From positions 1-52,640 of the IMG/VR virus record IMGVR_UViG_3300002854_000247: a DNA stretch of 52,640 bases; one strand, given 5' to 3'. The position numbers and the translations under genes are program-made. This stretch comes from a virus. Lineage: Duplodnaviria; Caudoviricetes. This document shows positions 1,865 to 49,328 of this stretch, piece by piece. Position 1 is the first letter of the stretch. Each line of letters opens with the position of its first letter. The notes beneath the pieces are model-generated. The model was not told where the DNA came from and did not search any database. It worked only from the letters and a program-made list of their open reading frames with translations.

Positions 1865-2140
1865 ATGACGTACGGTGTCTTCCGAACATCCCACAAGTTC
1901 TACCACTCGCGCCCTCCGGCTAACTGCGTCTCCGCAAGAGAGGCTTGGGACGTCCTCATTCAAGATGGGCCTATCGTCAGTATGCGGCTGCTCGACGGTC
2001 TATGGATGTGCGAGAGGCCGAATGGCGACCTTGATAATGTCGAGAATGTGTTCGAGCTGGATCGTCGCAAGACCAAAGAGCGCGCCAAGTACGCGGCGCA
2101 GGGCTCCACCATAGGCACAAAGGGGGGCGACCATGGCTAG
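1865..2140 (+). CDS. Hypothetical phage protein
   Basis: ATG 4 nt after previous stop. Confidence 0.5.
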   Translation: MTYGVFRTSHKFYHSRPPANCVSAREAWDVLIQDGPIVSMRLLDGLWMCERPNGDLDNVENVFELDRRKTKERAKYAAQGSTIGTKGGDHG

Positions 2141-3017
2141 GGCACTTCCCAAGGTTTCCGGTTACTCACCAGTCGAGCCTATAGTTTCTCGACAAGAATT
2201 GAACGTCTCTCGTCAACATCGCAATCTGCACTTTGCAATTTTCGATTTCCGTAGGAAGTCTCTTTACACGTTCGATGCGCTTAACTTCCTCGGAACGAAA
2301 TCTCTGCTCGCCTCGGAGATAATTTCTTACCGTCTCGTCGTCAGGTTCAATCGTGCCGCTGGTAAGCGACGCGATGTCTCTCAACCTATAGAGCTGAGCG
2401 AGAGTGGCTTTAGCTTGAGAGGAAAATGCGCCCCCGAAAAGATGGGCAGCGTCAGTCCATGCCGCGTCTTTAAAGCAATCTGCCGCGCGATCACTCAAAA
2501 GAGAGATGCCATTTGCAGTATCGCGGTAGGTCGATACGTCAGCGTAAAAAGTAGCTTCGCTCCGAATAACCAGGGGCTGTTCGAAATGAAGCGCTTCCTG
2601 CAAATCCTTCAAGGCCGGCATGATTGCGAAGAATGCACGGTCGATAATCAGACCATCGTTTCGCAGCTGGACGCGCATCAATTCATCGTGCCGTCGGTCG
2701 CTTTCTTCGTCCGCGCGTCGCATTTCTCCGACGGTAATGTAAGCCGCTATTATCGCGAGAATGCCCGTGAGAAGGCTTTGGTAGTCGTACACAATGCCCG
2801 CAACATAGCTCGTTGCCCGGCCATCTTTGCTGACCGCGCCCACCTTAGCGAGGTGCACGGTAAAAGTGACTGCGACGCTAATCGCAATGCCCCAAAAAAA
2901 CGCCCTCAAATTTTCTCTCATGTTCGCGCCCCGAGTGATTTCGGCCAAATTGCTACTTGCCGACAGATCGCGCAACAAGGCATCGCCGCCACCGGCGCGA
3001 ACGGGCTCCGAGGATGA
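2133..3017 (+). other. Sense 'bridge' ORF (294 aa) spanning antisense gene 2166-2921
   Basis: Starts with SD (GGGGGG) overlapping the stop of the 1865 gene; ends in an ATGA overlap with the next bridge ORF. Confidence 0.5.
2166..2921 (-). CDS. Accessory membrane protein (2 N-terminal TM helices + soluble domain)
   Basis: Two hydrophobic segments; sigma70-like TTGCGC...TAGCAAT upstream; lower GC. Confidence 0.75.
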   Translation of the reverse strand: MRENLRAFFWGIAISVAVTFTVHLAKVGAVSKDGRATSYVAGIVYDYQSLLTGILAIIAAYITVGEMRRADEESDRRHDELMRVQLRNDGLIIDRAFFAIMPALKDLQEALHFEQPLVIRSEATFYADVSTYRDTANGISLLSDRAADCFKDAAWTDAAHLFGGAFSSQAKATLAQLYRLRDIASLTSGTIEPDDETVRNYLRGEQRFRSEEVKRIERVKRLPTEIENCKVQIAMLTRDVQFLSRNYRLDW

Positions 3018-3817
3018 CAGCTAGTCTACTGATGAACAAAATCGTCCAGCGGGATGCTGGTCTCTATAACGGTTTTATGCCGGGCTCCGGGAAAACGCCC
3101 AAACACTCGTACTGCTATCATCCCCGGATAGCTTCCGGAAAGCGGGGTTTCTTCGTCACGATTCGTCCACCTGAACTCAAAATCCAGAACAAACGGTCGA
3201 TCCTGACGGTCAATCCAGCCAGAAACCTTTGGGATACCGCCCAGAGTGCCATCCTCGCTCAAAAGGTAAACCGAACCTACAACATTCTCTGGCTTCTCGA
3301 TTTCATACCTAACGACGAAACGAGGGCGGGGGTATTCGATCGAGCACGCCAGATCAATTCGGTCGATGAGGAAGGTTCGGCGGTTCCAGTTTACGATACG
3401 AAATCCGGGACCGCTGCCATTCCGCGCACGTCGCTGAGATTCGATCGTGGGAGGCTCGTCGCCGACTATGAAAGCTGTCTGCCTTCTCAACTCCCTCAGT
3501 TGAGCGACGATCGGCCAGAGCGCCGCAATGGCTGTGCCCCCGGCGAACCAACCGCTAGAGGCCCCAACCCAATCCCGAAAGCACATTTCGTCCGTTGGAA
3601 GGCACAACGGCTCGGTGCTCAAGAGATACACGCCCATCAAGAAGAAAGGCACCAGGAGGCCAATCAATATCCCCCACAGGACCCAATACCACTTCCGTTC
3701 TCGCCGGTCTTCCAAAGCGTCCACCTTTTCAGTTGGCTCAACTTAGGCCTTTGGGGCAATAAACAACAAGGGGAGAACGCCACCCTAAACGCAAGTGGAG
3801 CCAAGGAACAAACCTGA
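3014..3817 (+). other. Sense 'bridge' ORF (267 aa) spanning antisense gene 3026-3724
   Basis: GAGG-ATGA start coupled to stop at 3017; open across the whole antisense gene. Confidence 0.45.
3026..3724 (-). CDS. Accessory membrane protein (2 TM helices + soluble domain)
   Basis: WYWVLWGILIGLLVPFFLMG and GWFAGGTAIAALWPIV hydrophobic segments. Confidence 0.75.
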   Translation of the reverse strand: MDALEDRRERKWYWVLWGILIGLLVPFFLMGVYLLSTEPLCLPTDEMCFRDWVGASSGWFAGGTAIAALWPIVAQLRELRRQTAFIVGDEPPTIESQRRARNGSGPGFRIVNWNRRTFLIDRIDLACSIEYPRPRFVVRYEIEKPENVVGSVYLLSEDGTLGGIPKVSGWIDRQDRPFVLDFEFRWTNRDEETPLSGSYPGMIAVRVFGRFPGARHKTVIETSIPLDDFVHQ

Positions 3818-3857
3818 GCAGACCGCAATTATCTCGATGCGCTTGGCCAAACCTCTA

Positions 3858-3883
3858 ACCCCGCCCTGAGCGGGGTTCTTTTC
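3858..3883 (+). terminator. Rho-independent terminator-like hairpin
   Basis: AACCCCGC-cctga-GCGGGGTT followed by T-run. Confidence 0.55.
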
Positions 3884-3899
3884 TGCGTAGGAGGATGGA

Positions 3900-4157
3900 A
3901 TGGACGACAGTAGCTGGGAAGAGCCGATCACGTTCGAAACCAACAGGCTCGGGAAGTACTGGACCGTAACCAGCACTGCTGAAGCAGCAAGAGCGTTGAT
4001 GGAGAGATGGCCGGTCGATACCGGCGAGGCCTATGAGGCGGCCCTGAGAACGTGTCTGGCGGCTATGGAGGGAAGAGAGACGCCCGACGATGCGCGAGGG
4101 GCGTTCCTGAAGGCAGCCGAAGAGGCAGACGTGTTTATTCGGACGGGAGGTTATTGA
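3900..4157 (+). CDS. DUF982 family protein
   Basis: VTSTAEAARALMERWP...AR.AFLKAAEEA pattern; AGGAGG SD. Confidence 0.8.
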   Translation: MDDSSWEEPITFETNRLGKYWTVTSTAEAARALMERWPVDTGEAYEAALRTCLAAMEGRETPDDARGAFLKAAEEADVFIRTGGY

Positions 4158-4420
4158 TGAGCGGGTACCCGGATCTCAGCGAGGCATTTCGGACGGCGCC
4201 AGTGATTTACCTCGCCCCGACGGCGCCTCGCGATGGCACACCTATCGCCGCCCGAAACGACGAAGGTGAGATGGACATTATCCGCTGGAGAACCGTCCCA
4301 GACCTTGAGCCTGGCTATGAGCCTTATTGGGCCTCGTTCGCGACTGACGAGCTTTTTGAATTCCTGGACTGGATACCATCACCGCTGATCATTGATCAGA
4401 TATTGGTGATCTACGGGTAG
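4157..4420 (+). CDS. Hypothetical protein
   Basis: TGATG overlap, GGAGG SD, TAPRDGT motif common in phage proteins. Confidence 0.6.
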   Translation: MSGYPDLSEAFRTAPVIYLAPTAPRDGTPIAARNDEGEMDIIRWRTVPDLEPGYEPYWASFATDELFEFLDWIPSPLIIDQILVIYG

Positions 4421-4802
4421 ACTGCCGCAGTGTGCGCTCTATTCCACCCTGTTGCACAAAGCATCATACGCCTGCCGGCCGGCGCGGTAATCTACTTCGG
4501 GATGTCAATGGGATGGTGGTGAAGCAAAGGACGCGGCGAACAACTATGGTTGACCTCGACGAGGCAGCCCGGACGAAAACCTACTTCAGAAAGGCGTCAT
4601 GGACCGGGAAGAAGAGGGTAAATTATCGAGCTCTTGGCCGAGCTATAAAAGCCCTCGATGGCGTTGTCCAAGCGCAGTGGAAAGCGTAGCACCTATGCCG
4701 CGATCTGGCATCCATGAAAGCGTGGGACATTAACCCGCGCGCTACTTAAAATTGCTTAAGTTAAGACTTGAATGAAAACTGCTCATAGCCCATCTAGGAG
4801 GA

Positions 4803-4864
4803 TGGCTTGCATTTGCGAGCCAAAAACAGAGCGGCCCGGAAGGTGTTGGAGCACCGTCCGGGCC
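4803..4864 (+). promoter_or_regulatory. Structured leader (two hairpins) upstream of KilA-N gene
   Basis: TGGCTTGC-attt-GCGAGCCA and GGCCCGGA...TCCGGGCC stems. Confidence 0.45.
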
Positions 4865-4981
4865 TGAAGTACCAACCTTGCGGCAGGCTATGTGATCACA
4901 TGACATTCATCTAGGCATTAATTTTCTGGTGTCAAGAGTCTAGCGCCTCCGCATAACGACATAAAGAAAGGTTTATGTCTT

Positions 4982-5743
4982 ATGCAGCAGCATTTTGATC
5001 TTATTCCTCATCAGGAATCGGGGACCCTTATCTATCAGCGGCCTGCCGATGGGTACATAAACGCCACCTCACTGTGTCAGGCGTCTGGCAAGCGATGGAA
5101 CGATTATGTCGTACTGAGCGCAACAAAGTCATTTCTGGGCTCGTTATCTACCGAAACCGGAATTCCGGTTTCGGTACTTGTGCAGTCTTTTAAAGGCGGA
5201 GATGTGCGGTTCCAAGGAACCTGGGTCCACCCGCAGGTAGCCATTAATCTCGCCCAATGGCTTTCTGGTGCGTTTGCGGTAAAGGTTAGCAGGTGGGTCT
5301 TCGACTGGATGTCAGGGGCGGCCAGACCCCGAGCGCCGGAAATGCCCTATCATCTGCGCAGGTACGTCGCAAACCAAGCCAACGTTCCCATTGGCCATTT
5401 CTCGATTCTTTCTGAATTGAGCATTGCGCTCATCGCGCCGATGGAGAACCAAGGATATACTCTACCGGAACACTTGGTGCCGGACATTTCCCATGGCCTT
5501 ATGTTCTGCAAGTGGCTGCGGTCTAAGGGCGTGGATACAGACGCCCTTCCTAAATATGTGCACGCCTATGAAGACGGTAGGCGAGTGCAGGCTAAGGCAT
5601 ACCCAGAAGCCTTACTTGCTGACTGGAGACGACATTTCCGCGAGGAGTGGCTTCCAAACAAGGCTGTCGAGTATTTCCGAGGGCGGGACAACGCTGCGCT
5701 TCAATACCTTCCAAAACTTCTGCCGAAGCCGAAAGTTGCTTAA
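4982..5743 (+). CDS. KilA-N domain protein with BstA-like C-terminal domain
   Basis: DGYINATSLC...GTWVHPQVAINLAQWLS = KilA-N; C-terminal VP.GHFSIL.E...VPDISHG...AYP..LL. Confidence 0.85.
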   Translation: MQQHFDLIPHQESGTLIYQRPADGYINATSLCQASGKRWNDYVVLSATKSFLGSLSTETGIPVSVLVQSFKGGDVRFQGTWVHPQVAINLAQWLSGAFAVKVSRWVFDWMSGAARPRAPEMPYHLRRYVANQANVPIGHFSILSELSIALIAPMENQGYTLPEHLVPDISHGLMFCKWLRSKGVDTDALPKYVHAYEDGRRVQAKAYPEALLADWRRHFREEWLPNKAVEYFRGRDNAALQYLPKLLPKPKVA

Positions 5744-5851
5744 CTTGGCACCTTATCCAAGGTGGATTTCATCTGAACTGACCTTTCGCCGGGGAACCAG
5801 GAACTGCGCAACGCGCGAGAGGTCGATTTAAATCGTTAAAGGAATAGTTAC

Positions 5852-6427
5852 ATGATGAAAGGTCAACCCTTGTTTCACGATGGGGATCTCAGCCACTACC
5901 TTCGCGGCGAGACCCAAGAAATTGAAGCATATGTCCGCAAGAAGTTGGGCGAAGGCGACCTGGCTAAGTCTGACGAAGAAATCGTCGCTGACCTATTGCC
6001 AGGGGCGCGCGTCGGCGCCATCGAGGTCAACTTTGATGATCCGGTTCGCAACGTCGCTGAAGCTCAAGTTGAAGTGGCGGACCAATTTCGTGGCGGTCGC
6101 ATTAAGGTGGCAGGTATTCGAGTGACGAAAGCGTTCCCCTACAAGGGCCAGCAACTCCTTTTCAAGTTACAGCCAAATTCCTACACAGCAAGGCTTCCTT
6201 ACGCCGATGTGACGCGCACTCATGTAGTCTTGATCTATGAGGGACGCAGCGATGAGGAGGCGGTTAAACGCGAGATCGCTGAAATGGAAGGCATCCTGAA
6301 GTTTTATGTTGACGCATCCTATCGCCAGGTCGAAACGCACGACGCATCCATTCCCGCTCTCTTGATGGATGCGGTTAAGCGCAGGCGGGCCCACTTGGGC
6401 GAGGTTTCGAAAATCAAAGACTTCTAG
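5852..6427 (+). CDS. Hypothetical accessory protein
   Basis: AAGGA SD, 191-aa ORF followed by terminator. Confidence 0.75.
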   Translation: MMKGQPLFHDGDLSHYLRGETQEIEAYVRKKLGEGDLAKSDEEIVADLLPGARVGAIEVNFDDPVRNVAEAQVEVADQFRGGRIKVAGIRVTKAFPYKGQQLLFKLQPNSYTARLPYADVTRTHVVLIYEGRSDEEAVKREIAEMEGILKFYVDASYRQVETHDASIPALLMDAVKRRRAHLGEVSKIKDF

Positions 6428-6450
6428 CCAATTCGGTGCACTCTGAAACC

Positions 6451-6487
6451 AAAAAAAGCGCCGCCCGGCGCTTCCGGGCGGCGCTTC
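6451..6487. terminator. Bidirectional terminator ending the late operon
   Basis: AAGCGCCGCCCGG-cgctt-CCGGGCGGCGCTT with A-run (U-run on - strand). Confidence 0.85.
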
Positions 6488-6505
6488 CCTTTGGGTGTGA
6501 GGCAG

Positions 6506-6952
6506 CTACTTGCGTTCGATCCCGCTACGTTGCCCAGCCTCAATGCGTTGAAGGATCTCGCGCACCACCTTGATGTCGCCCGCCTGTTGGCTCACGAGAT
6601 TCTGAAGCTCACGAATGGCAGTGGCGGTCGACGTCGTCGATTGCTCGGTAACGGTGACGCGGTACGCAAGGTTTTCGATCTGGGAGACGGCCTTGCGCGT
6701 ATCGGCTTCCAAGCTGCGAAACCGCTCTTCAGAGCGCGCCTCCCCCGCTTTCACCTCGACAAGACGTTCCTTGTGAAGCTGCTCGTGACCGGTGCGCCAA
6801 GTTTGCAAATCCTCGATGTCGCGGCTCTTGTCGACCCAGATCGTCACGCCGCCGACGCACATGCCGACAAGAGTGATGAGCTGGATGACCGTGTTCAAAT
6901 TCCATTCCAGCGTTCTTGCACGGGTAATGCCCATGGTCTTCTCCTCGGTCAT
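6506..6952 (-). CDS. Lysis-cassette membrane protein (1 TM + coiled coil)
   Basis: Follows endolysin/holin; hydrophobic N-terminus, coiled-coil C-terminus. Confidence 0.75.
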   Translation of the reverse strand: MTEEKTMGITRARTLEWNLNTVIQLITLVGMCVGGVTIWVDKSRDIEDLQTWRTGHEQLHKERLVEVKAGEARSEERFRSLEADTRKAVSQIENLAYRVTVTEQSTTSTATAIRELQNLVSQQAGDIKVVREILQRIEAGQRSGIERK

Positions 6953-6970
6953 CCGCTCTTCCTGAGAAGT

Positions 6971-7150
6971 TCAGTTGGCGTTCTTCGGCGCCAGATACGT
7001 GAGCACGGCCGGCAGACCGACTGTGATGGCATAAAGCGCGAGATAGCCGTACCAGGGCGTGCCCTCCGGCATGAACGGCAGGCCGATAGTGCCGGTTGCA
7101 GCGCCGCCGGCAGCTGCGGCGATTGCTTTCGAAATCTTTTCCATGCTCAT
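6971..7150 (-). CDS. Putative holin (59 aa, 2 TM)
   Basis: AAGGA SD, MSMEKISK start, two hydrophobic segments, directly after endolysin. Confidence 0.65.
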   Translation of the reverse strand: MSMEKISKAIAAAAGGAATGTIGLPFMPEGTPWYGYLALYAITVGLPAVLTYLAPKNAN

Positions 7151-7164
7151 TTCCTTTTCAGGTT

Positions 7165-7905
7165 TCAGGCCGCAGCCTTGGTTTCGAAGATGGCCCGCAG
7201 GCGTGCGACCGTCGGCGCATCCAACTCGCCGGATTGATCGAGCCCGGAGGCGAGTTGGAAAGCTTTGACGGCGGCCATGGTCTTCTTGCCGGCGATGCCG
7301 TCGATCGGGCCGAGCACATAGCCGCCGCGTGTAAGGAGGCGTTGAAGGTAAGCAACGCGGGTATCCGGCCCTTCCAGCACCGGAGCGCTCGCCGGCTCCA
7401 GCGTGATCGGCTCCCAACTGCCCTTGATGTCCGCAACCGGCAGGCCGTGTTCCGCCGCCCAAGGAATGACATCGAAGCAGGGGCAGGCCTTCATGTGTTC
7501 GAAGGGCTCGATCACGCCATTGCCGTTCTGGTCCGGCGACAGGTCGCGGTGGCCGCACCACTTAATATCGGCGAAGTCCGCGGTAAGATCCTTCATGCGC
7601 TTGAACAGCGTGGCGAGTTGCGCATCACGGATCGTGTTGAAATCCGGCTTACCGGAGGCGTTGACGCCGCCGACCATCGAAATGCCATAGGAGATCGAGT
7701 TGAAGCCGGCGACATGCGCGCCGATCGCCATCTTCCCCCGCCCCATCTCGGGGGTGCCGTTCGGATTGATGATCTCGTTATAGCCGATGTCGGACCAGCC
7801 TTGAGCCTTGTGGATTGCCCGGATGCCGGCAGCGCCCTTATCCCAGCCCGGAGGCGTGGCAGTGACGTGCACGACCCCAAGCGTGGTGCGCTTGCGGTTT
7901 GCCAT
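7165..7905 (-). CDS. Endolysin: N-acetylmuramoyl-L-alanine amidase (T7 lysozyme-like) with C-terminal peptidoglycan-binding domain
   Basis: VVHVTAT, GWSDIGY, GAHVAGFN, GHRDL, KACPCFDV; IDGIAGKKTMAAVKAFQ PG-binding motif. Confidence 0.93.
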   Translation of the reverse strand: MANRKRTTLGVVHVTATPPGWDKGAAGIRAIHKAQGWSDIGYNEIINPNGTPEMGRGKMAIGAHVAGFNSISYGISMVGGVNASGKPDFNTIRDAQLATLFKRMKDLTADFADIKWCGHRDLSPDQNGNGVIEPFEHMKACPCFDVIPWAAEHGLPVADIKGSWEPITLEPASAPVLEGPDTRVAYLQRLLTRGGYVLGPIDGIAGKKTMAAVKAFQLASGLDQSGELDAPTVARLRAIFETKAAA

Positions 7906-7970
7906 GATCTATTTCCTTGATGAAGAAGGTTTTAGTTGCTGGTGATGCCGCTACGCGGCTGAGGTGGGCT

Positions 7971-7995
7971 GGAACCAACCGGCCTTGCTGGAGTT
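7971..7995 (+). promoter_or_regulatory. EcfG/RpoE2-type general-stress promoter
   Basis: GGAAC-N16-AGTT, 34 nt upstream of ATG 8029. Confidence 0.6.
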
Positions 7996-8028
7996 TTTGT
8001 GCTCGATAACCCAGCCAGCGAGGCGGCC

Positions 8029-18382: not shown

Positions 18383-18700
18383 ATGGATGGATGGCTCAAG
18401 GGACTGATCGCGATCGCGTGCGTGGTCGTTATCGCCGGCGGTGGATATTTTGCTTACTCGGAGTACCGGAGATCCCAGGAACAAGAAGCAGCCAAGTCGG
18501 CCGCTGATCGTCGAGCCCTTATAGTTGCCTGCAAGCAAATGATAAGGGACCTCTCAAAGAACGAAACGAAAGACTACAAAGGCGGTTACATCGCCACTTG
18601 CATCAACGACGGCTACGTGACCGAACAGGAATTCAAGGACGCTGGCGCTGGTGGCTACCTCGACCCGGTTCGAAGCCTGATCAAACCCGCAGCCCAGTAG
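18383..18700 (+). CDS. Antisense moron: membrane-anchored exported protein with Cys pair
   Basis: AGGAGG SD; N-terminal TM; two C-terminal Cys. Confidence 0.8.
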   Translation: MDGWLKGLIAIACVVVIAGGGYFAYSEYRRSQEQEAAKSAADRRALIVACKQMIRDLSKNETKDYKGGYIATCINDGYVTEQEFKDAGAGGYLDPVRSLIKPAAQ

Positions 18701-33935: not shown

Positions 33936-34231
33936 GGCTTCTCACCCCGCGCTACCGATTGTGAGAAGGCCACCGCATCATCGACGCTATGGAGCGTGAA
34001 GACAGGCGAGCCCCGCCAGTCGTCTGCGAATGACTGCTGGTTTGCGTTCAGGCCCTTGCCGTATCCCTTGGTGCCGGTCTTCACCTCGACGAGATAATTC
34101 CGGCCGCGGAACCCGCAGAGCAGGTCGACCGGCTTGTCGAGCCGGTAGATACTGAATCCAAAGCCTTCGAGGAAATCGACGATCGACTTTTCGGATGCGT
34201 CGCGCTGCGCGCCATAGCGGGGCATGCTCAT
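33932..34231 (-). CDS. PD-(D/E)xK / VRR-NUC-like nuclease
   Basis: PVDLL...LVEVK...Q..F. Confidence 0.75.
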   Translation of the reverse strand: MSMPRYGAQRDASEKSIVDFLEGFGFSIYRLDKPVDLLCGFRGRNYLVEVKTGTKGYGKGLNANQQSFADDWRGSPVFTLHSVDDAVAFSQSVARGEKP

Positions 34232-34458
34232 CCGCGCGCCTCCCGCCGAAGCTCGGCGTTGATGGCCTTGTTGCGCTCTCGCCAACGGCGATTGGCTTCA
34301 CGTTGCCGTTCACGGCGCTCCTCATCGGGCAAAACACCGTGATCTACATCGGCTCGAGCCGCCATGAGGTTATAGGCTTCGCTCTCGTCGATGCCGCATG
34401 CCTCGGCTATCGCTGCACTGTTTCGGCCGAATAGTTCGTAGGCTTCGCAGAAGGTCAT
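34228..34458 (-). CDS. Small HTH-like hypothetical protein
   Basis: ATGA-coupled; SAAIAEACGIDESEAYN. Confidence 0.7.
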   Translation of the reverse strand: MTFCEAYELFGRNSAAIAEACGIDESEAYNLMAARADVDHGVLPDEERRERQREANRRWRERNKAINAELRREARG

Positions 34459-34471
34459 GCCGCCACCTCGC

Positions 34472-34497
34472 GGAACATTCCCCGGCCTGCACCGGTT
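34472..34497 (+). promoter_or_regulatory. EcfG/RpoE2-type promoter
   Basis: GGAAC-N17-GGTT upstream of ATG 34521. Confidence 0.65.
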
Positions 34498-34520
34498 GCA
34501 CGTGCGTAGAGGAGAGCGAT

Positions 34521-34703
34521 ATGGCCAATGACCCAAACGATCCGAAGAAGCCCTTGGAAGTTCCTCCGGAAGAGACTCCAGACGATCTGCCGGACATTCC
34601 GGCACGCCCGATTGAGGAACCGGGACCGGACGTTGTTCCGGAAGAAGCACCGGATGTCACGCCCATACCGGGAGAGGAAATTCCGTCGAAGATGATCCGC
34701 TGA
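34521..34703 (+). CDS. 60-aa acidic Pro-rich disordered protein (antisense moron)
   Basis: GAGGAG SD; MANDPNDPKKPLEVPPEETPDD... Confidence 0.7.
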   Translation: MANDPNDPKKPLEVPPEETPDDLPDIPARPIEEPGPDVVPEEAPDVTPIPGEEIPSKMIR

Positions 34704-34708
34704 GGCTT

Positions 34709-37210
34709 TCATGCCGCCTCGACTTCCCGTTCGAATATGTCGAACATCGTCGGCGTCGAAACCTCGCGCTCCATAGCCTGCAGGTACTTGATGCCATCAA
34801 GGAAGTATCCAGGGTTCAACTCGGATGCGCGACCGCGGCGGCCAAGCTTCAGCGCCCGGTACGGTACGGTGAACAACCCGCCGAACGGATCGAAAACCAG
34901 CTCCCCCTCATTGGAGAATCGCTTGATGAGGCGGTCGACAATGTCGAATTGGAGGGGGCAAATGTGGTTTTCCAGCCCCTTCTTCGTCTGCTCGCCGTTC
35001 AGCGTCCGCATGCGGTTCACGTCGTGCCAGGTGAATGCGTCGTGGGCGCCTGGCGCCAAGCTCATGAAGGTCGACGGTAGTGCGCCGCGGACTTCGAGCG
35101 CTTCACCGATGCGGATGTGCGTCTCGTAGTCATAGACGTTCTGCATCGTCCATTCGGTGAAGGCCTTCGCCAGAAGATCCGGGCCAAGGCTGGCAAGCTC
35201 TTCAGGCGTCGGAAGCCGGTCGCCTGACGAGCGCCAGAAGGCATGGGCGTCAACCTGCCACCGGGCACGGGTGTAATCGTCTTTCGACTTGGAAACGCGC
35301 TCGTCGGCGTAGGCCTTGGAGGTGTCGGACGGCAGCTTGCGGAAGAGCAGAGTGTATTCGGGCGAGCCCACGCCCATCTTCGTGCCGTCCTTGCAGTTTT
35401 CGGACCAGCCGAGGCGATAGGTCTGGTTATTCTCGCGCACCACGTCCGTGTTGACGGTGATCATGCCCATGTAGGCAAACCCGTGCTGCATGGTGTGGAA
35501 GAGCGTGCGGGCGTGGAACGGGTTGACCGTCGGCATCCCCATGCCGGTGACGTTCCCGAATAGGATGCGGTCCTTGGTGTGGCAGGCGTAGACCCGGCCG
35601 GGCTTGAGGATCCTCAGCAGTTCGGGCGTCAGAAAGTCCATCTGTTGGAAGAAATGATCGTCGCCGTCGGTGTGGCCGAAGTCGTTATAGCTCGGGGTGT
35701 ACTCGTAGTGGTTCGAGAAGGGGATCGAGGTCACGATCAGGTCGACCGAGATATCGGCCATGGACCGAGCCTCTTCGACGCAATCGTTGTTCGCCACCTG
35801 CCATCCCTCGCCGCGCGCTTCGATCCGCTCGACGCCGATGGAGCGGGTCAGGACCTCAGCAGCCGAAAGCTTATCAAGGCCATGCTCGCGGATGATTTCG
35901 CTCATTTTCTCGACCATGCGATTATGTGCCTCCCATTTGGCTTGGAGGGTGCGCAGGACCTCGCGCTCGCTCTCCGCGTAGATGATGTGGATTTCGACCT
36001 CTTCGACCTGCAGGAATCGGTAGATGCGGTGCAGAGCCTGGATAAAGTCGTTGAATTTGAAGCCGATGCCGAGGAACACAGCCTTGTGGCAATGGCGTTG
36101 GAAGTTGCAGCCGGAGCCGGCGATGACAGGTTTCGCGGCGAGGTACTGAAACTTACCCTCGCTGAAATCGACGATCGCCTCTTCGCGCTTCTCGAGATCC
36201 TGGGTCCCGTAGATCGACACGGCTGATGGCACGGCGCGCTCGATCGCGCGGCGCTCGTCTTCAAGATCGTGCCAGATGATGAAATGATCTTCCGGAGCGC
36301 CGGCAAGGATCTCGGTCATCTTGGCAATACGGGCATCGAGCGTGTCGCGCTTCTCACGCGATGCCGAGACAACGCCAACAGCGGTATCGCGGAAGAGTGC
36401 AGCCTGGCCATCGCGATCAACGCCGCCGTCCGCGATGTTCGACTGAACCTCGTGGTAGATGACCTTGAACGGCGGCAGGTCGTATCCTTCAGCGGAGTGG
36501 CCCAGGTCAGCCGGCGACTGCAAAAAGATCGCCCACGAATTCAGCCATAGCCAGAATTCACGCTCCTTGTGCGGGTAGAGCGTCAGATTGTTGGCCTGGG
36601 TACTGTCGCGCTGGAAGAACCGCGTCAGGGCCTGCCCGGTGTCCATGATGCCAAGGAAGCCGGCGTAGTGGATCAGTTCCTTGTAGCGGTTCGGGCTTGG
36701 CGTGGCCGTCGCGACAAAGCGATAGCGAACCTGATCGAACAGCGAGAGAAACGTCTGATAGGTCTTCGAGCCATAGGAGCGAAGCACGGACGCCTCGTCC
36801 AGGCTCACGGCCGTGAACTGGTTCGGATCGATCTTACCGTCGCGGACGGTCTCATAGTTCGTCATGTAGATGCCGGTCTCGCCAGCTTCTTCGATGCGAC
36901 GAATGAACTTGATATCGACGCCGAGCATCTTGCCGTCGCGGCGAAACTCCTGACGGACGCCGAGCGGCAGGACGATCAAGCCACGGCCAGCGACAGCGGC
37001 GCAGACGAGGCGCAGGACCTCGATCTGGATAACTGACTTGCCCAGGCCAAACGCCGCGAAGATTGCCCGCTTGCCGCCGCGGGCGGCCCACACGACGATA
37101 TCGCGCTGATGGGGCTTGAGGATCGGGTTCACGTCGCCGTGGGAGATCGGCAGGCCTGAGACCGGAGCAAGACGGATTTTGCCTTTGAGAAAGTCGCCGT
37201 AATCCATCAC
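34709..37210 (-). CDS. SNF2-like helicase domain fused to N4/N6 DNA methyltransferase
   Basis: FGLGKS, LDEAS, TATPSPN; C-terminal TSIPF and DPFGG motifs. Confidence 0.88.
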   Translation of the reverse strand: MMDYGDFLKGKIRLAPVSGLPISHGDVNPILKPHQRDIVVWAARGGKRAIFAAFGLGKSVIQIEVLRLVCAAVAGRGLIVLPLGVRQEFRRDGKMLGVDIKFIRRIEEAGETGIYMTNYETVRDGKIDPNQFTAVSLDEASVLRSYGSKTYQTFLSLFDQVRYRFVATATPSPNRYKELIHYAGFLGIMDTGQALTRFFQRDSTQANNLTLYPHKEREFWLWLNSWAIFLQSPADLGHSAEGYDLPPFKVIYHEVQSNIADGGVDRDGQAALFRDTAVGVVSASREKRDTLDARIAKMTEILAGAPEDHFIIWHDLEDERRAIERAVPSAVSIYGTQDLEKREEAIVDFSEGKFQYLAAKPVIAGSGCNFQRHCHKAVFLGIGFKFNDFIQALHRIYRFLQVEEVEIHIIYAESEREVLRTLQAKWEAHNRMVEKMSEIIREHGLDKLSAAEVLTRSIGVERIEARGEGWQVANNDCVEEARSMADISVDLIVTSIPFSNHYEYTPSYNDFGHTDGDDHFFQQMDFLTPELLRILKPGRVYACHTKDRILFGNVTGMGMPTVNPFHARTLFHTMQHGFAYMGMITVNTDVVRENNQTYRLGWSENCKDGTKMGVGSPEYTLLFRKLPSDTSKAYADERVSKSKDDYTRARWQVDAHAFWRSSGDRLPTPEELASLGPDLLAKAFTEWTMQNVYDYETHIRIGEALEVRGALPSTFMSLAPGAHDAFTWHDVNRMRTLNGEQTKKGLENHICPLQFDIVDRLIKRFSNEGELVFDPFGGLFTVPYRALKLGRRGRASELNPGYFLDGIKYLQAMEREVSTPTMFDIFEREVEAA

Positions 37211-38310: not shown

Positions 38311-38633
38311 GCCGGCACCTCGTCGAACATCGGCCGTGCAGGCTGGCCCGCGCCGAAAATGTCGAACGCAGCAGCCATTTCGTAATCAGGCTTGCCGGAC
38401 TGGCGGGCCTTCACCATGCCGCCGATTGAGCCAGCACGGCGCGCGGCGGCGATGGTGTTCCGGGATTTGAAGCGTCGGCCATGGTAGGCGCCGAAGGACA
38501 AAACCTCTTCCCGCTCGGCGCCGAGGTTCATGGCGATGTGGCGGGCAGACATTAAGCATTCGATGCCGCCGTCGATCTGGGCGAGCTTCTGTTCAGTTGA
38601 GGCGCGAGACCACCATGAAATTTTACTGGTCAT
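38307..38633 (-). CDS. Hypothetical protein
   Basis: ATGA-coupled; MTSKISWW start. Confidence 0.65.
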   Translation of the reverse strand: MTSKISWWSRASTEQKLAQIDGGIECLMSARHIAMNLGAEREEVLSFGAYHGRRFKSRNTIAAARRAGSIGGMVKARQSGKPDYEMAAAFDIFGAGQPARPMFDEVPA

Positions 38634-39847
38634 TGCGCAGCCTCCAGAGCTTCGGCCAGCCCGAAAGCAGCCATGATGTCGCCTGCACGGTGCGGGAATT
38701 CCTTCGCCAGTTGGGCGGCGATCTTCCGTTCCTGCGCAGGGGTGAAGTTGCGGGAGGCGCGCTGCCACTCGATCAAGTCGAGGAGCAGGTCAGAGCCGCT
38801 GTATTCCTGGACGGGGTAGCTAATGCCCAAATCGCGGGCGATGTTGTATCTGGCCCAGCCGTCAACGATTACGTCGCCTTGGCGGACAATGGGGGTATGC
38901 ATACCTTTAAAGGCAATGTCGGTGCCAAGGGCGTCATAGGCCGCATTCGACAATTCGGGGAAGCAGTGAGCGAAGCCCGGCCGCTTCATCGGCATCGGCG
39001 GGACGTCTTCCATAAAGACGCCGGGGCCAATGGGGAGAGTGCTGGCGGCACCCTCCCCGTTCTCATCACGGTTTGCGCGCAACGCGCCGCCATTTACATG
39101 ATCGCCTCCTGCGTTGGCGGCGGCGGCGTGATCAGCGCGGTCGTCGCTGGTTGGTGCCGTCGCTTCGCCTTGAGTGGCGACGGTGGCTTTCTCGGAATGG
39201 GTTGCCGTCTCTCCGGCTGTCACGGCCGTAGCTTCCGTCCTCGCCATGCGCACCGTACCGTCTTCGCCGTTGGGCCGGTTGGCCGCGGCACGCGCGGGTT
39301 CCGGATTGCCAATAAGGTGAGACCCAGGGTGTTGCATCTCGTCTGCCGTTTCCGGCGAATGGGTTGCAGCGCTTTCTTCGGCCACACGCGCTGCCAGCTT
39401 GGAGGAGACGGAGGGGGAGCCGTCCGAAGCTTCAAGTTCTTCCGCCTCTTCGCGTTCGATCATGATGTTGATGGCAGTCAGAAGCGCCGCCTTGCCTGCT
39501 TCGCTTTGTATGCCGTCAACGACCTGCTTGATCAGGCGCGGGTTGGCGTCGAATTGTTCAATGTTTTCTCGTGCGTATGCGCGGGATGCGCGCGGGGCTT
39601 CCAGTGCGGCGAGATAGGTATCGACCAGAGCCTCGTGCTCGGCGTCGGCCGGATCGGCCTCGTCCATCTTCACCTTGAGGCGGAACGCGGCGCGCATGGC
39701 CTTCGTGTCGTGGCCGAATGCCTTTTGCTCGGCAAACAGTTCCTTGAGGTCGTCGCCGATGCGGGCCTTTTCCTCTTCCAGGTTCTTCCAGCGCTGGAAA
39801 GCGGAGCGGACCTGATCGTCTGCGATGGCGTGGGGCTCGGTGCTCAT
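38630..39847 (-). CDS. GapR/DUF2312-like N-terminal domain + disordered linker + ParB-like C-terminal domain
   Basis: LEEEKARIGDDLKELFAE.KA.G.DTKAMR; DI..KG...PIV...VIVDG..RY. Confidence 0.8.
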   Translation of the reverse strand: MSTEPHAIADDQVRSAFQRWKNLEEEKARIGDDLKELFAEQKAFGHDTKAMRAAFRLKVKMDEADPADAEHEALVDTYLAALEAPRASRAYARENIEQFDANPRLIKQVVDGIQSEAGKAALLTAINIMIEREEAEELEASDGSPSVSSKLAARVAEESAATHSPETADEMQHPGSHLIGNPEPARAAANRPNGEDGTVRMARTEATAVTAGETATHSEKATVATQGEATAPTSDDRADHAAAANAGGDHVNGGALRANRDENGEGAASTLPIGPGVFMEDVPPMPMKRPGFAHCFPELSNAAYDALGTDIAFKGMHTPIVRQGDVIVDGWARYNIARDLGISYPVQEYSGSDLLLDLIEWQRASRNFTPAQERKIAAQLAKEFPHRAGDIMAAFGLAEALEAAQ

Positions 39848-40065
39848 GCGGCGGCTCCCGGCTGCGCGACAAGCCCAGCGAGATCGGGGCGAAGCTCATG
39901 AGGGGGAATGCCGGTGGCCTCGGAAACGGCCTGCAGGTTTTCAGCCGGGATCCGGCGCTTGCCGGTCTCGTATCGAGACCATTGCACCCCGCTCACGCCG
40001 ACAAGATCACCGGCTTCTTCGATGCTGAGTTTACGCGCCTTGCGCCATGTCCTGATCTTTTCCAT
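39844..40065 (-). CDS. Cro-like XRE regulator
   Basis: IRTWRKARKLS...WSRYETGKR.IP...LRPDL; divergent from repressor. Confidence 0.85.
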   Translation of the reverse strand: MEKIRTWRKARKLSIEEAGDLVGVSGVQWSRYETGKRRIPAENLQAVSEATGIPPHELRPDLAGLVAQPGAAA

Positions 40066-44565: not shown

Positions 44566-44574
44566 GAGCGCGGA

Positions 44575-44784
44575 ATGGAAACCTACGACTCCCTCCTCTC
44601 CAAATCCAAGGTAGCCGACGCCGACGCCGCCATGTGGGATCGCATGGCTCGCGAAGCGGAAGACAGCGTCAAGCGCTACCGCCAGTACGCCAAGAACCGC
44701 CAGCGTGATGCGAACGAATACCGCGAACTGGCCGACCGGGCGCTTTCCGACATCAACGCTTCTCTCAAGGGGATTGCAGCATGA
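44575..44784 (+). CDS. Early coiled-coil hypothetical protein
   Basis: AGGAG SD. Confidence 0.65.
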   Translation: METYDSLLSKSKVADADAAMWDRMAREAEDSVKRYRQYAKNRQRDANEYRELADRALSDINASLKGIAA

Positions 44785-45743: not shown

Positions 45744-46492
45744 TGGCCGACAACCTCGATATCTGGAACCGCTTCGCTGACATCGACCCGAAGTTCACGA
45801 AGCCGATCACCGGGCGCGATTACGGCGGCACGTCACCGAATCCGCAGTATGTCATCATGTGCCTGACAGAAATGTTTGGCCCGTGCGGTAAGGGTTTCGG
45901 CTGGTCGGTCCTCGCCGAGGAGTTCAAGGAGATGGGCGGGACCTATCTCCACTGGTGCCGTATCCGCTTCTGGTGGAAAGACGAGGATGGCGAGCACAGC
46001 GTTGAAGAATACGGCCAAACCAAAGCCGCCTACGTCACCAGCAAGGGCACGATGCGCGTTGACGAAGACGCGCCGAAGAAGAGCCTGACCGATGCCGTCA
46101 TCAAGGGCTCATCACATATCGGCGTCGCCGCGAACATCTTCCTCGGCCGCTGGGACGATCAAAAGTACGTCGCCGAGGTCAACAAGGAATTCCGCGAGGA
46201 AGAGCAGAAGAAGGACGCTCCAAAGCCGATAACCGCAGCCGAGCAAAAGCGCCAGCTTGAGGAGATCGACAAGGATTTGCTCGACGCTCACACGACCGGC
46301 GACGTCAAGCGGCTCTTCGATATCTGGTTCAGCCTCGCCGAGCGCGACGGCTGGTCGAAAGACTATTGGGACGCTGCGCGCCGGAAGTTCGCGGCCAAGA
46401 AAAAGGAAATCGAGGACGCTGACAGCTTCCCCGGCGACACCGGAATTCGCAACGGCGCCGGTCGTGAACTTCATACGATGGAGGGCGCGTGA
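45743..46492 (+). CDS. Rad52/Sak-like single-strand annealing protein
   Basis: LTEMFGP.G.G.GW, DEDAPKKSLTDA..K....G...IFLG; follows exonuclease. Confidence 0.75.
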   Translation: MADNLDIWNRFADIDPKFTKPITGRDYGGTSPNPQYVIMCLTEMFGPCGKGFGWSVLAEEFKEMGGTYLHWCRIRFWWKDEDGEHSVEEYGQTKAAYVTSKGTMRVDEDAPKKSLTDAVIKGSSHIGVAANIFLGRWDDQKYVAEVNKEFREEEQKKDAPKPITAAEQKRQLEEIDKDLLDAHTTGDVKRLFDIWFSLAERDGWSKDYWDAARRKFAAKKKEIEDADSFPGDTGIRNGAGRELHTMEGA

Positions 46493-46992
46493 TGGCGACG
46501 GTGAACCGGATCGTCGAGACCGAGGCCGATCGGCGCGCCCTGCTACGGTTTCTGGAGGGGCGCCCAATCCCCCTCACTGTCACGATGACGGATGGCAAGC
46601 ACAAAACTGACAAGCAAAACCGGCTCCAGCGCCAATGGGTGATGGAAATCGCATCGCAACTCGGAGACCGCACGCCGGAGCAAGTGCGTGGGGAATGCAA
46701 ACTCCGGTTCGGAGTGCCAATCCTGCGCGAGGAGAACGAAGCCTTCCGGCTCGTCTATGACCGCTTGATCAAGCCGCACACCTACGAAGAAAAGCTGGAC
46801 TTCATGATGGAGCCCTTTGACTTCGGCGTGACGCGCATCATGACGACGCGCCAGAAGACGGAATATCTCAACCGTCTCCACGAGCATTATTCCGCCCAGG
46901 GCATTGTGCTCTCCAATCCAGAAGACCTGAAATTTCGCGGGTTGGCTCTCGGCCGCGCCTCACAGGCTGCGAACGATAGGAGAGTGGCATAA
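46492..46992 (+). CDS. NinB-like recombination protein
   Basis: T.KQNRL...W..EIA.Q, TR.MT..Q..EYL. Confidence 0.7.
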   Translation: MATVNRIVETEADRRALLRFLEGRPIPLTVTMTDGKHKTDKQNRLQRQWVMEIASQLGDRTPEQVRGECKLRFGVPILREENEAFRLVYDRLIKPHTYEEKLDFMMEPFDFGVTRIMTTRQKTEYLNRLHEHYSAQGIVLSNPEDLKFRGLALGRASQAANDRRVA

Positions 46993-47822
46993 TGGCCGAG
47001 AACTCTGCGATTTCATGGACGCGGCACACTTGGAACCCTTGGATGGGCTGCACCAAACTCACACCGGCCTGCGACGGCTGTTATGCCGAAGCTCTGATGG
47101 ATAAGCGATATGGGAAGGTGCAGTGGGGCAATCACCCGCGCATCCGAACCGGCAAACACACGTGGAATGACCCGTTCCGCTGGCAGCGGCAGGCCGAGAA
47201 GGACGGCGATCGGCCATTCGTGTTCTGCGCAAGCCTCGCAGATATCTTCGACAATCAGGTCGATCCGCAGTGGCGCGCCGACGCCTTCGATGTCATGCGG
47301 CAGACGCCGAACCTCGTTTATCTGCTCCTGACCAAGCGGCCACAGAACATCGTCAAGATGGCGGATGCTGCGGGGGGCCTGCCGGCGAACGCAGCTCTTG
47401 GCGCAACGTGCGAAGACCAGCCCCGTGCTGACAAGAACCTGCCGGCGTTGCAGGTCGCAAAGATCGAGCTAGGTCCGCTCTTCACTTTCGGGTCATTCGA
47501 ACCGCTGATCAGTGACATCATCGTCCCCAAGGGCCTGATGCCCGACTGGGTGATCACCGGTGGCGAGACGGATCAGGGTGGGCATAAGGCGCGCCCGACG
47601 CACCCGGACTGGTTCCGCAGCTTGCGTGACCAGGCTGCGGCCGCTGGCGTCGCGTTCCATCACAAGCAGAACGGCGAGTGGGTCTCGGTATCTGAGGTCG
47701 CCGGCCCCGGCGCGCACTTCAAGTTCGACGACGGCGCCACCGTCCGCCGCATCGGCAAAAAGCTCTCCGGGCGTACGATCGACGGTGTGACGCATGATGG
47801 TTTTCCGGAGGTCGCAGCATGA
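46992..47822 (+). CDS. Phage Gp37/Gp68 (DUF5131) family protein
   Basis: TWNPW.GCTK..PAC..CYA, LLTKRP, SFEPL, WVITGGE. Confidence 0.9.
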   Translation: MAENSAISWTRHTWNPWMGCTKLTPACDGCYAEALMDKRYGKVQWGNHPRIRTGKHTWNDPFRWQRQAEKDGDRPFVFCASLADIFDNQVDPQWRADAFDVMRQTPNLVYLLLTKRPQNIVKMADAAGGLPANAALGATCEDQPRADKNLPALQVAKIELGPLFTFGSFEPLISDIIVPKGLMPDWVITGGETDQGGHKARPTHPDWFRSLRDQAAAAGVAFHHKQNGEWVSVSEVAGPGAHFKFDDGATVRRIGKKLSGRTIDGVTHDGFPEVAA

Positions 47823-48016
47823 CCAGCACCATCCGCGTCAAAGGCTACGAGCGCCGCAAGCCCGAGAAGACACCAGACCCGTTCGCTGACAAGATCCGCG
47901 AGCGTCTGGAGCAGATGCGCCGCCATCAGGCCAAGGCACCGCAGCGCCAGTCCATGCCCTCAATCAAGGATGGCCTGAGAATCCTCGTCAAGCTCATGCA
48001 GAAGGGGGGCCGGTGA
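47819..48016 (+). CDS. Hypothetical protein
   Basis: ATGA-coupled. Confidence 0.65.
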   Translation: MTSTIRVKGYERRKPEKTPDPFADKIRERLEQMRRHQAKAPQRQSMPSIKDGLRILVKLMQKGGR

Positions 48017-48034
48017 TGGCGTCGCTCTTGATCG

Positions 48035-48295
48035 TTACAGCTCGCCGGGCGTCACCTTCGGCGGAACGCGGCCGGTGTGGTGCACGGGATTATCGTTGCT
48101 CGCGCTCTCGGTCAGCTTCTCACCGCGCTCGGACTGGCCTGACCGCGCCGGCGGCGCGTCGGCATCTTCCGTACCGCTCTCATCAGCCTGATCAGGCAGC
48201 GGCTGAGGGTCCATATCCATTTCTTGCGGTTCCGGCTTCCACGTTGGGGACGGCATCGGCTGGTTGTTCAGGTCTTCGTTTTTGGGATCGCTCAT
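48035..48295 (-). CDS. 86-aa acidic Pro-rich disordered protein (antisense moron)
   Basis: AGGAG SD; EcfG-type promoter upstream. Confidence 0.7.
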   Translation of the reverse strand: MSDPKNEDLNNQPMPSPTWKPEPQEMDMDPQPLPDQADESGTEDADAPPARSGQSERGEKLTESASNDNPVHHTGRVPPKVTPGEL

Positions 48296-48324
48296 CGTCA
48301 TGCTCCTGTTGGGTACAGACGATC

Positions 48325-48349
48325 AACCCGGCGTATGAGCCAAGGTTCC
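48325..48349 (-). promoter_or_regulatory. EcfG/RpoE2-type promoter
   Basis: GGAAC-N16-GGTT on - strand. Confidence 0.65.
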
Positions 48350-48394
48350 TTTCCAGCGCGCCTATCACGGCCTTCACGGGTATGGAGGGGTGAC

Positions 48395-48799
48395 ATGGCG
48401 AACCGTCGTGAATTCACCAAGAAGACCCAGCGCGAGGCCATGGCCCGGTCTGGTAAGCGATGCGAAGCGGGCGGCGCGATGTACGGCCTAGAGCCCGGCC
48501 ACCGCTGCAATGCCGATCTCTCCTATGGCGTCCAGTTCGATCACATCGTTCTCGACGCCAACTCCAAGGACAACAGCCTGGAGAATTGCGCAGCGGTCTG
48601 CATCAAGTGCCACAGCTGGAAGACGGCCAACCACGACATTCCCATGGCCGCGAAGACCGTTCGCCAGCAGGACATGGCGCTTGGTATCAAGAAGCTCGGA
48701 AAGCGGAAAATCCCGCGCGCGGCATCCCCCAAATCCGACAAGCCCCGCAAGCCCGTCGTCTACCGGCCGTGCACTTTCTATCGTGAGGACTTAACATGA
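48395..48799 (+). CDS. HNH endonuclease
   Basis: RCE...C...FDH...NSLENC..VC..CH..KT. Confidence 0.88.
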   Translation: MANRREFTKKTQREAMARSGKRCEAGGAMYGLEPGHRCNADLSYGVQFDHIVLDANSKDNSLENCAAVCIKCHSWKTANHDIPMAAKTVRQQDMALGIKKLGKRKIPRAASPKSDKPRKPVVYRPCTFYREDLT

Positions 48800-48810
48800 G
48801 CGGTTTAGCA

Positions 48811-48945
48811 TCAAGCACGCGAGTTGGTCGCGAGATACCTCGCGATAATCAACTGTTCCACCTTCGACGTGGCGCGATGAAACGCGACGGCGGCCACGAC
48901 AGCTTTTTTGATGAACCAGCCGGTGACACGATCACGAATTTTCAT
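48811..48945 (-). CDS. Unannotated 44-aa protein MKIRDRVTGWFIKKAVVAAVAFHRATSKVEQLIIARYLATNSRA
   Basis: GGAGGG SD; EcfG-type promoter upstream. Confidence 0.6.
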   Translation of the reverse strand: MKIRDRVTGWFIKKAVVAAVAFHRATSKVEQLIIARYLATNSRA

Positions 48946-48986
48946 CTGGCACCCTCCATCACGTCTTACGAGCAATCTGGAAAAGG

Positions 48987-49011
48987 AATGCCGTCAGGTG
49001 ATTTTGGTTCC
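48987..49011 (-). promoter_or_regulatory. EcfG/RpoE2-type promoter
   Basis: GGAAC-N16-CATT on - strand. Confidence 0.55.
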
Positions 49012-49031
49012 CGCTCAACCTCAGGTGACGC

Positions 49032-49328
49032 ATGACCAGCAAGAAGATTGAAGACGGCGGGCCGGCGTTCCCGGTGGAAGTCCAAACCATGCCGGATGGA
49101 TCGCTTCGACCGGTCCAGACGGGGCACATGACGGGCTGGTCGGGCGGACTCACTACTAGAGACTATTTCGCAATCCATGCCGATGTCCCGTGGAATGCCG
49201 TGATCGATACACTGGCCATCCGTGGAGAGAGCAGCCGGACAGTTCAGCGCATGGCGGAGTACCTAGCCGAAGTTCGGTACATAATGGCCGACGCCATGAT
49301 CGCCGCCCGGAAGGCAGGTGAAGCATGA
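49032..49328 (+). CDS. Phage hypothetical protein (GGPAFP...G.T.RDYFA...ADAMIAAR family)
   Basis: Characteristic motifs. Confidence 0.8.
   Translation: MTSKKIEDGGPAFPVEVQTMPDGSLRPVQTGHMTGWSGGLTTRDYFAIHADVPWNAVIDTLAIRGESSRTVQRMAEYLAEVRYIMADAMIAARKAGEA

Follow-up and report, generated by a model that had tools for sequence, protein, structure and literature searches.

In ambigrammatic narnaviruses, the reverse reading frame is reportedly kept open by avoidance of the codons TTA, CTA and TCA. In the parts of the two reports used here, the reverse open reading frame (ORF) lies over the gene for the RNA-dependent RNA polymerase (RdRp); its translation is reportedly needed for persistence (PMC8316113), and it reportedly codes for no functional protein (PMC8155312). 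Long codon-aligned antisense frames opposite real genes, so-called shadow ORFs, are described for GC-rich genomes in the cited portion of PMC3454372. For operons, the cited portion of PMC12548453 holds that untranslated RNA invites Rho and that upstream translation promotes translation of the next gene. Here, we have analysed the complete provirus IMGVR_UViG_3300002854_000247 of the IMG/VR database (52,640 bp, ~60% GC; this whole stretch is called the window), in which five ORFs lie backwards in operons and each is crossed from end to end by a stop-free sense ORF, which we call its bridge. The pairs are numbered 1 to 5, and the backward genes are named A, B, p3, p4 and p5. Codon counts and gene junctions in related prophages indicate that, in the families of pairs 1 and 2, whose backward genes code for membrane proteins with two transmembrane helices (2-TM), the bridge frames owe both their openness and the coupling of their ends to selection.

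The arrangement resembles that of ambigrammatic narnaviruses, as far as the cited parts describe it, in that a codon-aligned opposite-strand frame spans the whole gene. Narnaviruses are eukaryotic RNA viruses with the reverse frame over the whole segment, whereas the carriers here are double-stranded DNA (dsDNA) prophages, and the likeness is one of analogy only. The window is not an RNA genome segment with an RdRp gene; it is a dsDNA provirus with an integrase gene at 50993-52123 and with helicase and HNH genes. Unlike in narnaviruses, it is the inserted backward gene that is under constraint here, and the operon strand carries the open frame, which is phased start-to-stop with the neighbouring genes. 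As with shadow ORFs, four of the five bridges lie in the same register, their peptides do not look protein-like and they are mistaken for genes by gene callers. Codon bias suffices to explain shadow ORFs, whereas the codon depletion described below goes well past the codon bias seen within these genes and in the genes around them, and it depends on nesting.

As in translationally coupled operon genes, consecutive ORFs on one strand are joined by stop/start overlaps (ATGA and TGATG) or separated by gaps of a few nucleotides. A product-less frame over a backward gene is not among the coupling cases in the cited part of the 2025 review of translational coupling (PMC12548453), in which a term search gave no mention of 'antisense' or 'opposite'. 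Full-text literature searches gave no description of the bridge-frame pattern in DNA phages. Classical morons are described as having their own promoter and terminator and are usually co-directional or insulated. The backward genes are like morons in that they are accessory genes set between neighbours that adjoin each other in related phages (pair 4) and in that pairs 1 and 2 have a lower GC content. Unlike classical morons, they are squeezed in between one stop and the next start, where a terminator would not fit, and their coding is adapted to the other strand. Ambigram frames and coupling are already known; what is new is an ambigram-like, neighbour-phased open frame over backward genes in DNA phages.

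The original prediction placed five sense ORFs and five backward ORFs in the window, and all of them are present where it put them (Table 1). It had each bridge start at the stop codon of an upstream gene. All of these junctions can be read, with the reservation that the 'gene' upstream of bridge 2 is bridge 1 and not a real gene; pairs 1 and 2 form one tandem block, and to call the five cases independent was an overstatement. The ATG of bridge 1 (2133) overlaps the TAG stop of ORF 1865-2140 by 8 nucleotides (nt), ATGGCTAG, and bridge 1 is joined to bridge 2 by an ATGA with its ATG at 3014, an inner ATG of the TTG-started ORF 2957-3817. Bridge 3 is joined by one ATGA to the end of the helicase-methylase gene 34709-37207 and by another to the start of ORF 34228-34458. 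Bridge 4 begins with GTGA, or TGATG, at the stop of ORF 47819-48016, and a gap of 1 nt separates its own stop (48391-48393) from the HNH gene, whose ATG is at 48395. The ATGA partners of bridge 5 are the HNH gene 48395-48799 and the gene at 49032-49328. Four of the five bridges end at the start of the next ORF, with ATGA (1, 3 and 5) or a 1-nt gap (4), and pairs 1, 2, 3 and 5 are codon-aligned while pair 4 is not, both as predicted.

Substitution patterns and homology indicate that the backward frames of A, B, p3 and p4 are the real coding frames, and rule out the converse reading, in which the bridges would be genuine genes with the backward ORFs as their shadows. Gene A carries the conserved motif YDYQ(S/T)L..G...AA..TV.EM, and a search of 1.84 billion representative proteins at E<=1e-3 gave 315 relatives, whose lengths are all ~220-310 amino acids (aa). 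The motif of gene B reads RRQTAFIVGDEPP...FRIVNWNRR, and the small family to which it belongs shares the invariant core RRQTAFIVGDE...FRIVNWNRR. Among 38 A-family genes, the BLOSUM62 score was higher in the 2-TM frame for 702/702 differing pairs; it counts against this figure that the underlying protein alignment was made from the 2-TM frame and is thereby biased towards it among deeply diverged sequences, so that the weight of the frame test is carried by 10 close pairs unaffected by this bias. Substitutions in the A family followed the order position 3 > 1 > 2 in every identity class, and by blastp the 2-TM frame was favoured over the bridge frame in 11/11 comparisons. Between the p3 genes of the window and locus L025, differences at codon positions 1/2/3 number 9/4/38, and the amino-acid identity of 0.78 contrasts with 0.33 when the opposite frame is read; the p3 cluster includes a protein named hypothetical in Shinella sp. 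For p4, compared with locus L008, the corresponding values are 18/15/44 and 0.65 against 0.41.

The original prediction had taken all five backward genes as real, and p5 remains a candidate. Single-protein scans of viral contigs gave no relatives for gene A, gene B, p5 or bridge 5, and a class-level genome search with the profile A2 matched only 2 of 401 genomes. Searches of Pfam and PHROGs gave no family for any bridge peptide or backward protein, and neither did PADLOC. The bridge peptides are also not conserved in relatives, and the view that they are non-family sequence holds. The IMG pipeline called bridges 1 and 2 as genes and missed the 2-TM genes A and B; its calls at 2133-3817 may reflect a systematic annotation error at such loci.

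The strongest evidence for selection comes from the codons TTA, CTA and TCA, whose absence from the backward gene keeps the aligned opposite frame open. A profile scan of IMG/VR with the A family gave 33 prophage loci, selected solely by similarity in the 2-TM frame. The original prediction had proposed such a test in related prophages against controls, and homologous inserts indeed rarely carry bridge stops. The three codons are absent from 27 of the 33 genes and occur exactly once in the other six, at codons 4, 4, 7, 9, 24 and 37 in the longest-ORF model, five of the six preceding an alternative start. They account for 6 of 1351 Leu and Ser codons in the family compared with 168 of 3361 in 110 flanking genes (Fisher p 2.5e-18), and genes with none make up 27/33 and 36/110, respectively (p 6.9e-7). 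Scaled from the flanking controls, ~137 would be expected. The GC content at third codon positions (GC3) is 0.76 in the controls and 0.59 in the A family, yet the controls are richer in these codons. In genes A and B of the window, 0/39 and 0/33 Leu and Ser codons are of this kind, and none of their 43 CTN and TCN codons ends in A, compared with 34/189 codons in the other four-fold boxes.

Within the A family, CTA was found at 0/682, TCA at 4/232 and TTA at 2/247; A-ending codons make up 20.1% of the other four-fold boxes, and ATA and GTA occur at 94/527 and 61/540. Avoidance for the sake of translation efficiency can be ruled out, as the same genes use ATA, GTA and AGA freely. Clustering of 38 A-family sequences at 50% identity gave 31 clusters, 25 of them all zero, which suggests that most codon choices are independent; the genes are nevertheless related, and it tells against the strength of the counts that they are not fully so. 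The avoidance extends over the whole gene, as in an ambigram, and the codon usage of gene and genome does not explain openness in the A family, while it does so for pairs 3 and 5 taken alone. In cassettes 3 and 4 (the inserts of pairs 3 and 4), Leu and Ser codons are too few for the codon test.

Comparison of nested and non-nested homologues indicates that the codon depletion depends on the nested context. Three homologues that are not nested carry TTA, CTA or TCA codons, namely L004 (5, beside a LacI regulator and FolD), L006 (3, beside a helix-turn-helix protein and a resolvase) and L031 (18, beside a sulfotransferase and a glycosyltransferase). The nested rhizobial homologues L029, L032 and L033 of gene A and L005 and L069 of gene B have none, and the nested L030 has one, at codon 258 of 261. 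L029, L030, L032, L033, L005 and L069 are all crossed by sense ORFs joined to the neighbouring genes.

The same layout is found in a cultured phage. In Sinorhizobium phage Aussie (OR786373), two reversed hypothetical genes are annotated between gene 15 and GemA. They are A-family 2-TM paralogues with none of the three codons among 35 and 40 Leu and Ser codons. Sense ORFs of 294 and 275 codons cross them, from a GTGA at the stop of gene 15 to an ATGA at the start of GemA, and this relay matches pairs 1 and 2. In many Mu-like prophages (among L036-L068 and L070), an A-family gene is fixed backwards in the early operon between genes that we take, from their sequences and the annotation of Aussie, to be a DUF3164-like gene and GemA.

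The exact joining of the ends had been put forward as the non-random signal, and the related loci bear this out. Among 36 unique nested loci, with neighbours detected by a GC3 heuristic, 29 have a bridge stop that overlaps the downstream start; the overlap is 4 nt long in 25 of them, 1 nt in 2 and of another length in 2. The bridge stop lies within 20 nt of the downstream start in 3/36, and no downstream gene was found in 4/36, which include L030, whose row used a wrong frame. At the other end, the start codon of the bridge frame overlaps the upstream stop in 13/36 loci and lies at most 21 nt after it in 14 more. The downstream genes are of at least seven different kinds. In L038, L045, L047 and L056, a single stop-free ORF of ~500-625 codons (1.5-1.9 kb) runs apparently over two backward genes.

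The bridge product itself is unconstrained. The four-fold sites of the 2-TM gene are the first positions of the bridge codons, and in four comparisons their divergence was 0.192 (flanking genes 0.200 and 0.188), 0.316 (0.344), 0.124 (0.165 and 0.152) and 0.385 (0.45-0.53); divergence as fast as in the flanking genes suggests that no bridge peptide is being preserved. Purifying selection on both frames, as in an antisense gene pair, was not observed, as the bridge always scores lower. A reverse frame whose product is free of purifying selection is again ambigram-like. The 2-TM proteins are fast-evolving, with 86% identity where flanking genes keep 98-99%. The A-family 2-TM protein, which is without a Pfam, PHROGs or PADLOC family, is a candidate exclusion or defence gene.

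Cassettes 3 and 4 are consistent with similar selection. Cassette 4 is a true insert, since the HNH gene overlaps the upstream gene directly, by 4 nt, in the phages RHph_Y25 and RHph_TM3_3_3; an insert between genes adjacent in related phages was found for this pair only. Relatives of p4 occur at 16 IMG/VR loci (L007-L022), in three flanking contexts counting the window, and all of them keep an open, end-joined sense frame. That frame lies in the aligned register in L007 and the L008 group and in another register in the window, where the aligned one is closed by a TCA, so that it is the frame and not the peptide that persists. In each of the three contexts the p4 cassette directly precedes an HNH-type nuclease gene, though the nucleases differ. 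For cassette 3, four contexts that share no flanking homology were found, each time from ATGA to ATGA, and a fifth locus, L028, where the frame is open and the left ATGA is missing. Two indels have occurred in its non-coding parts, of 3 and 9 nt, and both preserve the frame.

Both cassettes carry possible traces of their insertion. A 10-bp direct repeat, GGCGGCATGA, itself a stop/start junction, bounds cassette 3 (34700-34712 and 34455-34470), and homology with the contexts in other phages (L023 and L024) ends exactly at this repeat. GTGA(C)ATGGCG is present at both ends of cassette 4.

How far chance alone would go depends on the sample. As a null model, the backward gene was recoded by the phage-wide codon usage or by that of the low-GC3 genes of the window, and we asked how often the bridge stays open across it. 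The open fractions were 0.077 and 0.002 for pair 1, 0.105 and 0.008 for pair 2, 0.83 and 0.63 for pair 3, 0.035 and 0.042 for pair 4 (0.28 when the own codons of p4 were permuted) and 0.78 and 0.56 for pair 5. TTA, CTA and TCA together make up 0.86% of codons in the window. Within the window alone, the evidence beyond chance is moderate; once the relatives are included, the pattern lies far beyond chance.

Several further observations weigh against selection on the bridges, or against the part given to Rho. A stop-free codon-aligned opposite frame is found in 33 of the 83 called genes of the window, and long chance shadows are common. How long they can get in this genome is shown by a 434-codon shadow ORF (38597-39901, plus strand) over a co-directional 405-codon gene (38630-39847, minus strand) that is without TTA, CTA and TCA. 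When the cassettes of pairs 3 and 5 were recoded and shuffled, 53% and 23% of them stayed open, so that taken alone these pairs lie within chance, and p5 is without relatives. Bridge 2 stops 40 nt before a strong terminator-like hairpin on the plus strand and 82 nt before the next ORF (3900), so that no coupled downstream gene obviously needs it. The sense RNA over the inserts has a C/G ratio of 0.96-1.25, which gives no hint that Rho loads strongly there. Duplication of an ATGA junction on insertion could also have left an ATG and a TGA at the cassette ends as by-products, as the repeat flanking cassette 3 illustrates. Finally, the backward gene 1056-1355 (minus strand) is unbridged and has two TTA, CTA or TCA codons. 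This gene is separated from its neighbours by gaps of 145 and 88 nt and has a sigma-70-like site upstream; a second unbridged candidate, 18383-18700, has one stop in the aligned opposite frame.

We argue that the backward genes are accessory genes and that the bridges are selected, product-less open frames that probably let ribosomes cross the insert, a reading that we hold to be somewhat more likely than not. The accessory genes run against the operon direction and code for a pair of 2-TM membrane proteins and for two or perhaps three tiny proteins. Duplication of the junction on insertion probably supplies an orphan ATG and an orphan TGA, and selection then keeps phase and openness, in the aligned register through the exclusion of TTA, CTA and TCA from the backward gene. 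Each resulting frame starts on the upstream stop or close to it and runs up to the start of the downstream gene, typically with ATGA. Ribosomes would stop at the upstream gene, restart in the bridge, cross the insert and hand over to the next gene, so that the transcript would never be bare to Rho or RNases and translational coupling would survive the insertion. That the hand-over is so often exact speaks for coupling; a pure Rho story is to be treated with caution, given the ordinary C/G ratio and the terminator that follows bridge 2. The claim of the original prediction that the bridges are selected to be open and end-coupled is thus upheld for the 2-TM families and agrees with cassettes 3 and 4 in their four and three contexts, and is weak for pairs 3 and 5 considered singly. 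Its further suggestions, that ribosomes move along the bridges, that Rho polarity is thereby avoided and that the opposite strand is expressed in lysogens, are conjectural.

It is conceivable that the bridges are nothing but the shadow ORFs usual in a genome of 60% GC and that their exact ends are relics of insertion, since an insert into a 4-nt overlap must duplicate the junction and leave an orphan ATG and an orphan TGA. The many open opposite frames in the window, the null values for pairs 3 and 5, the repeats at the ends of cassettes 3 and 4 and the homology that ends exactly at the junctions would all fit this account. It does not explain the 6 codons seen against ~137 expected in the A family, nor why non-nested homologues have such codons, nor why both indels of cassette 3 keep the frame, and it leaves the ~500-625-codon stop-free ORFs without a cause. 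For pairs 1 and 2 the family-level counts rule it out, for pairs 3 and 5 it is possible, and as an explanation of the whole we consider it unlikely. We find it similarly improbable that the frame is selected for some other reason, such as protection of the sense RNA by ribosomes from RNases that attack sense/antisense duplexes, or silencing of the backward gene through bridge translation in lytic growth. The codon depletion and end phasing apply equally to this account, and the terminator and the unremarkable C/G ratio that weaken the Rho version work in its favour, as does the narnavirus precedent of a reverse ORF that, in the cited parts of the reports, is said to require translation for persistence (PMC8316113) and not to yield a functional protein (PMC8155312). 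Mere ribosome coverage would not require an exact ATGA, and its presence in 25/36 loci fits coupling.

Least probable, in our view, is that both strands code for functional proteins or that, at pair 5, the sense ORF is the only real gene. That the IMG pipeline called 2133-3017 and 3014-3817 as genes would agree with the former, as would the weak similarity of bridge frames between distant homologues (E 1e-9 to 0.1), which is expected from shared second positions. No bridge peptide has a family, bridge identity is always below that of the backward protein, the first positions of the bridge change as fast as flanking neutral sites, and the bridge of pair 4 is read in different registers in different phages, all of which argue against it. 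For pair 5, a sense-only reading gains from the GAGGA ribosome-binding site of bridge 5 and from its fit into the ATGA chain like a small phage gene.

Table 1. Positions of the bridges, backward genes and adjoining features in the window.
Feature	Position	Strand	Remarks
Upstream sense ORF of pair 1, 91 aa	1865..2140	+	own gene model; no PHROG match
Terminator-like hairpin 3' of gene A, within ORF 1865-2140	2081..2100	-	7 pairs, 5 G-C; consensus match only
Bridge ORF 1, 294 codons, stop-free, codon-aligned opposite gene A	2133..3017	+	
Backward gene A, 251 aa, two N-terminal TM helices	2166..2921	-	315 relatives, alignments A2 and A3
Bridge ORF 2, 267 codons, 3' end uncoupled	3014..3817	+	
Backward gene B, 232-aa membrane protein	3026..3724	-	homologues P0019, P0020, loci L004-L006, L069
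Terminator-like hairpin and T run after bridge 2	3857..3877	+	8 pairs, 6 G-C
Downstream sense ORF of pair 3, 76 aa	34228..34458	-	homologous start in L025
Bridge ORF 3, 85 codons, ATGA at both ends	34455..34712	-	kept in L023, L024, L025-L027
Backward gene p3, 60 aa, Pro/Glu/Asp-rich, GAGGAG ribosome-binding site	34521..34703	+	
Helicase/DNA methyltransferase gene, upstream of pair 3	34709..37207	-	phrog_16 3e-135; phrog_67
Upstream sense ORF of pair 4, 65 aa	47819..48016	+	
Bridge ORF 4, 126 codons, not codon-aligned with p4	48013..48393	+	
Backward gene p4, 86 aa, acidic, AGGAG ribosome-binding site, GC3 0.75	48035..48295	-	
GGAAC-N17-GTT motif upstream of p4, possible stress-sigma promoter	48325..48349	-	candidate
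HNH endonuclease gene, downstream of pair 4, upstream of pair 5	48395..48799	+	phrog_333 and others; homologues RHph_Y25, RHph_TM3_3_3
Bridge ORF 5, 79 codons, ATGA at both ends; possibly a small sense gene in its own right	48796..49035	+	
Candidate backward gene p5, 44 aa, GGAGGG ribosome-binding site	48811..48945	-	IMG pipeline call
Downstream sense gene of pair 5	49032..49328	+	phrog_2201, 1.4e-16

The nearest named relatives of the window are temperate Rhizobium phages; a megablast search of positions 1-8000 against phages gave no match. An early operon on the plus strand covers ~43.5-50.7 kb, and a long minus-strand block includes the helicase-methylase gene. Accessory genes are abundant in the left arm, where a BstA-like abortive-infection protein is found at 4982-5743 (phrog_6287, 4.4e-55). 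Blocks resembling GGAAC...GTT stand 5' of the three small backward genes (48325-48349, 34465-34495 and ~48985-49010). Promoter-like blocks are conserved upstream of p3 and p4, with GTTCC and CAACC preserved in the cassette alignments, and no terminator was found inside cassettes 3-5. The conservation of these blocks suggests a stress-sigma promoter; the count of GGAAC-N16,17-GTT in the window is at chance (3 against 2.84 expected).

If our reading is true, DNA phages would show selection on a reading frame for its translatability and not for its product, and the bridges would give natural access to the study of transcription-translation coupling and of Rho polarity in phage operons. They would also point to a way of placing reverse cassettes in operons without polarity, and would expose what may be a systematic annotation error, in which bridges are called as genes and real 2-TM proteins are missed. 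We would tentatively extend it to a general rule of temperate phages, which we regard as a serious possibility just short of probable, that any gene lying backwards in a coupled operon is recoded into an ambigram, phased with its neighbours and crossed on a relay ORF. If this rule holds, uninterrupted translation would be obligatory for the processivity of early transcription in phages, and many phage 'hypothetical proteins' would be relay frames hiding backward membrane or defence genes.

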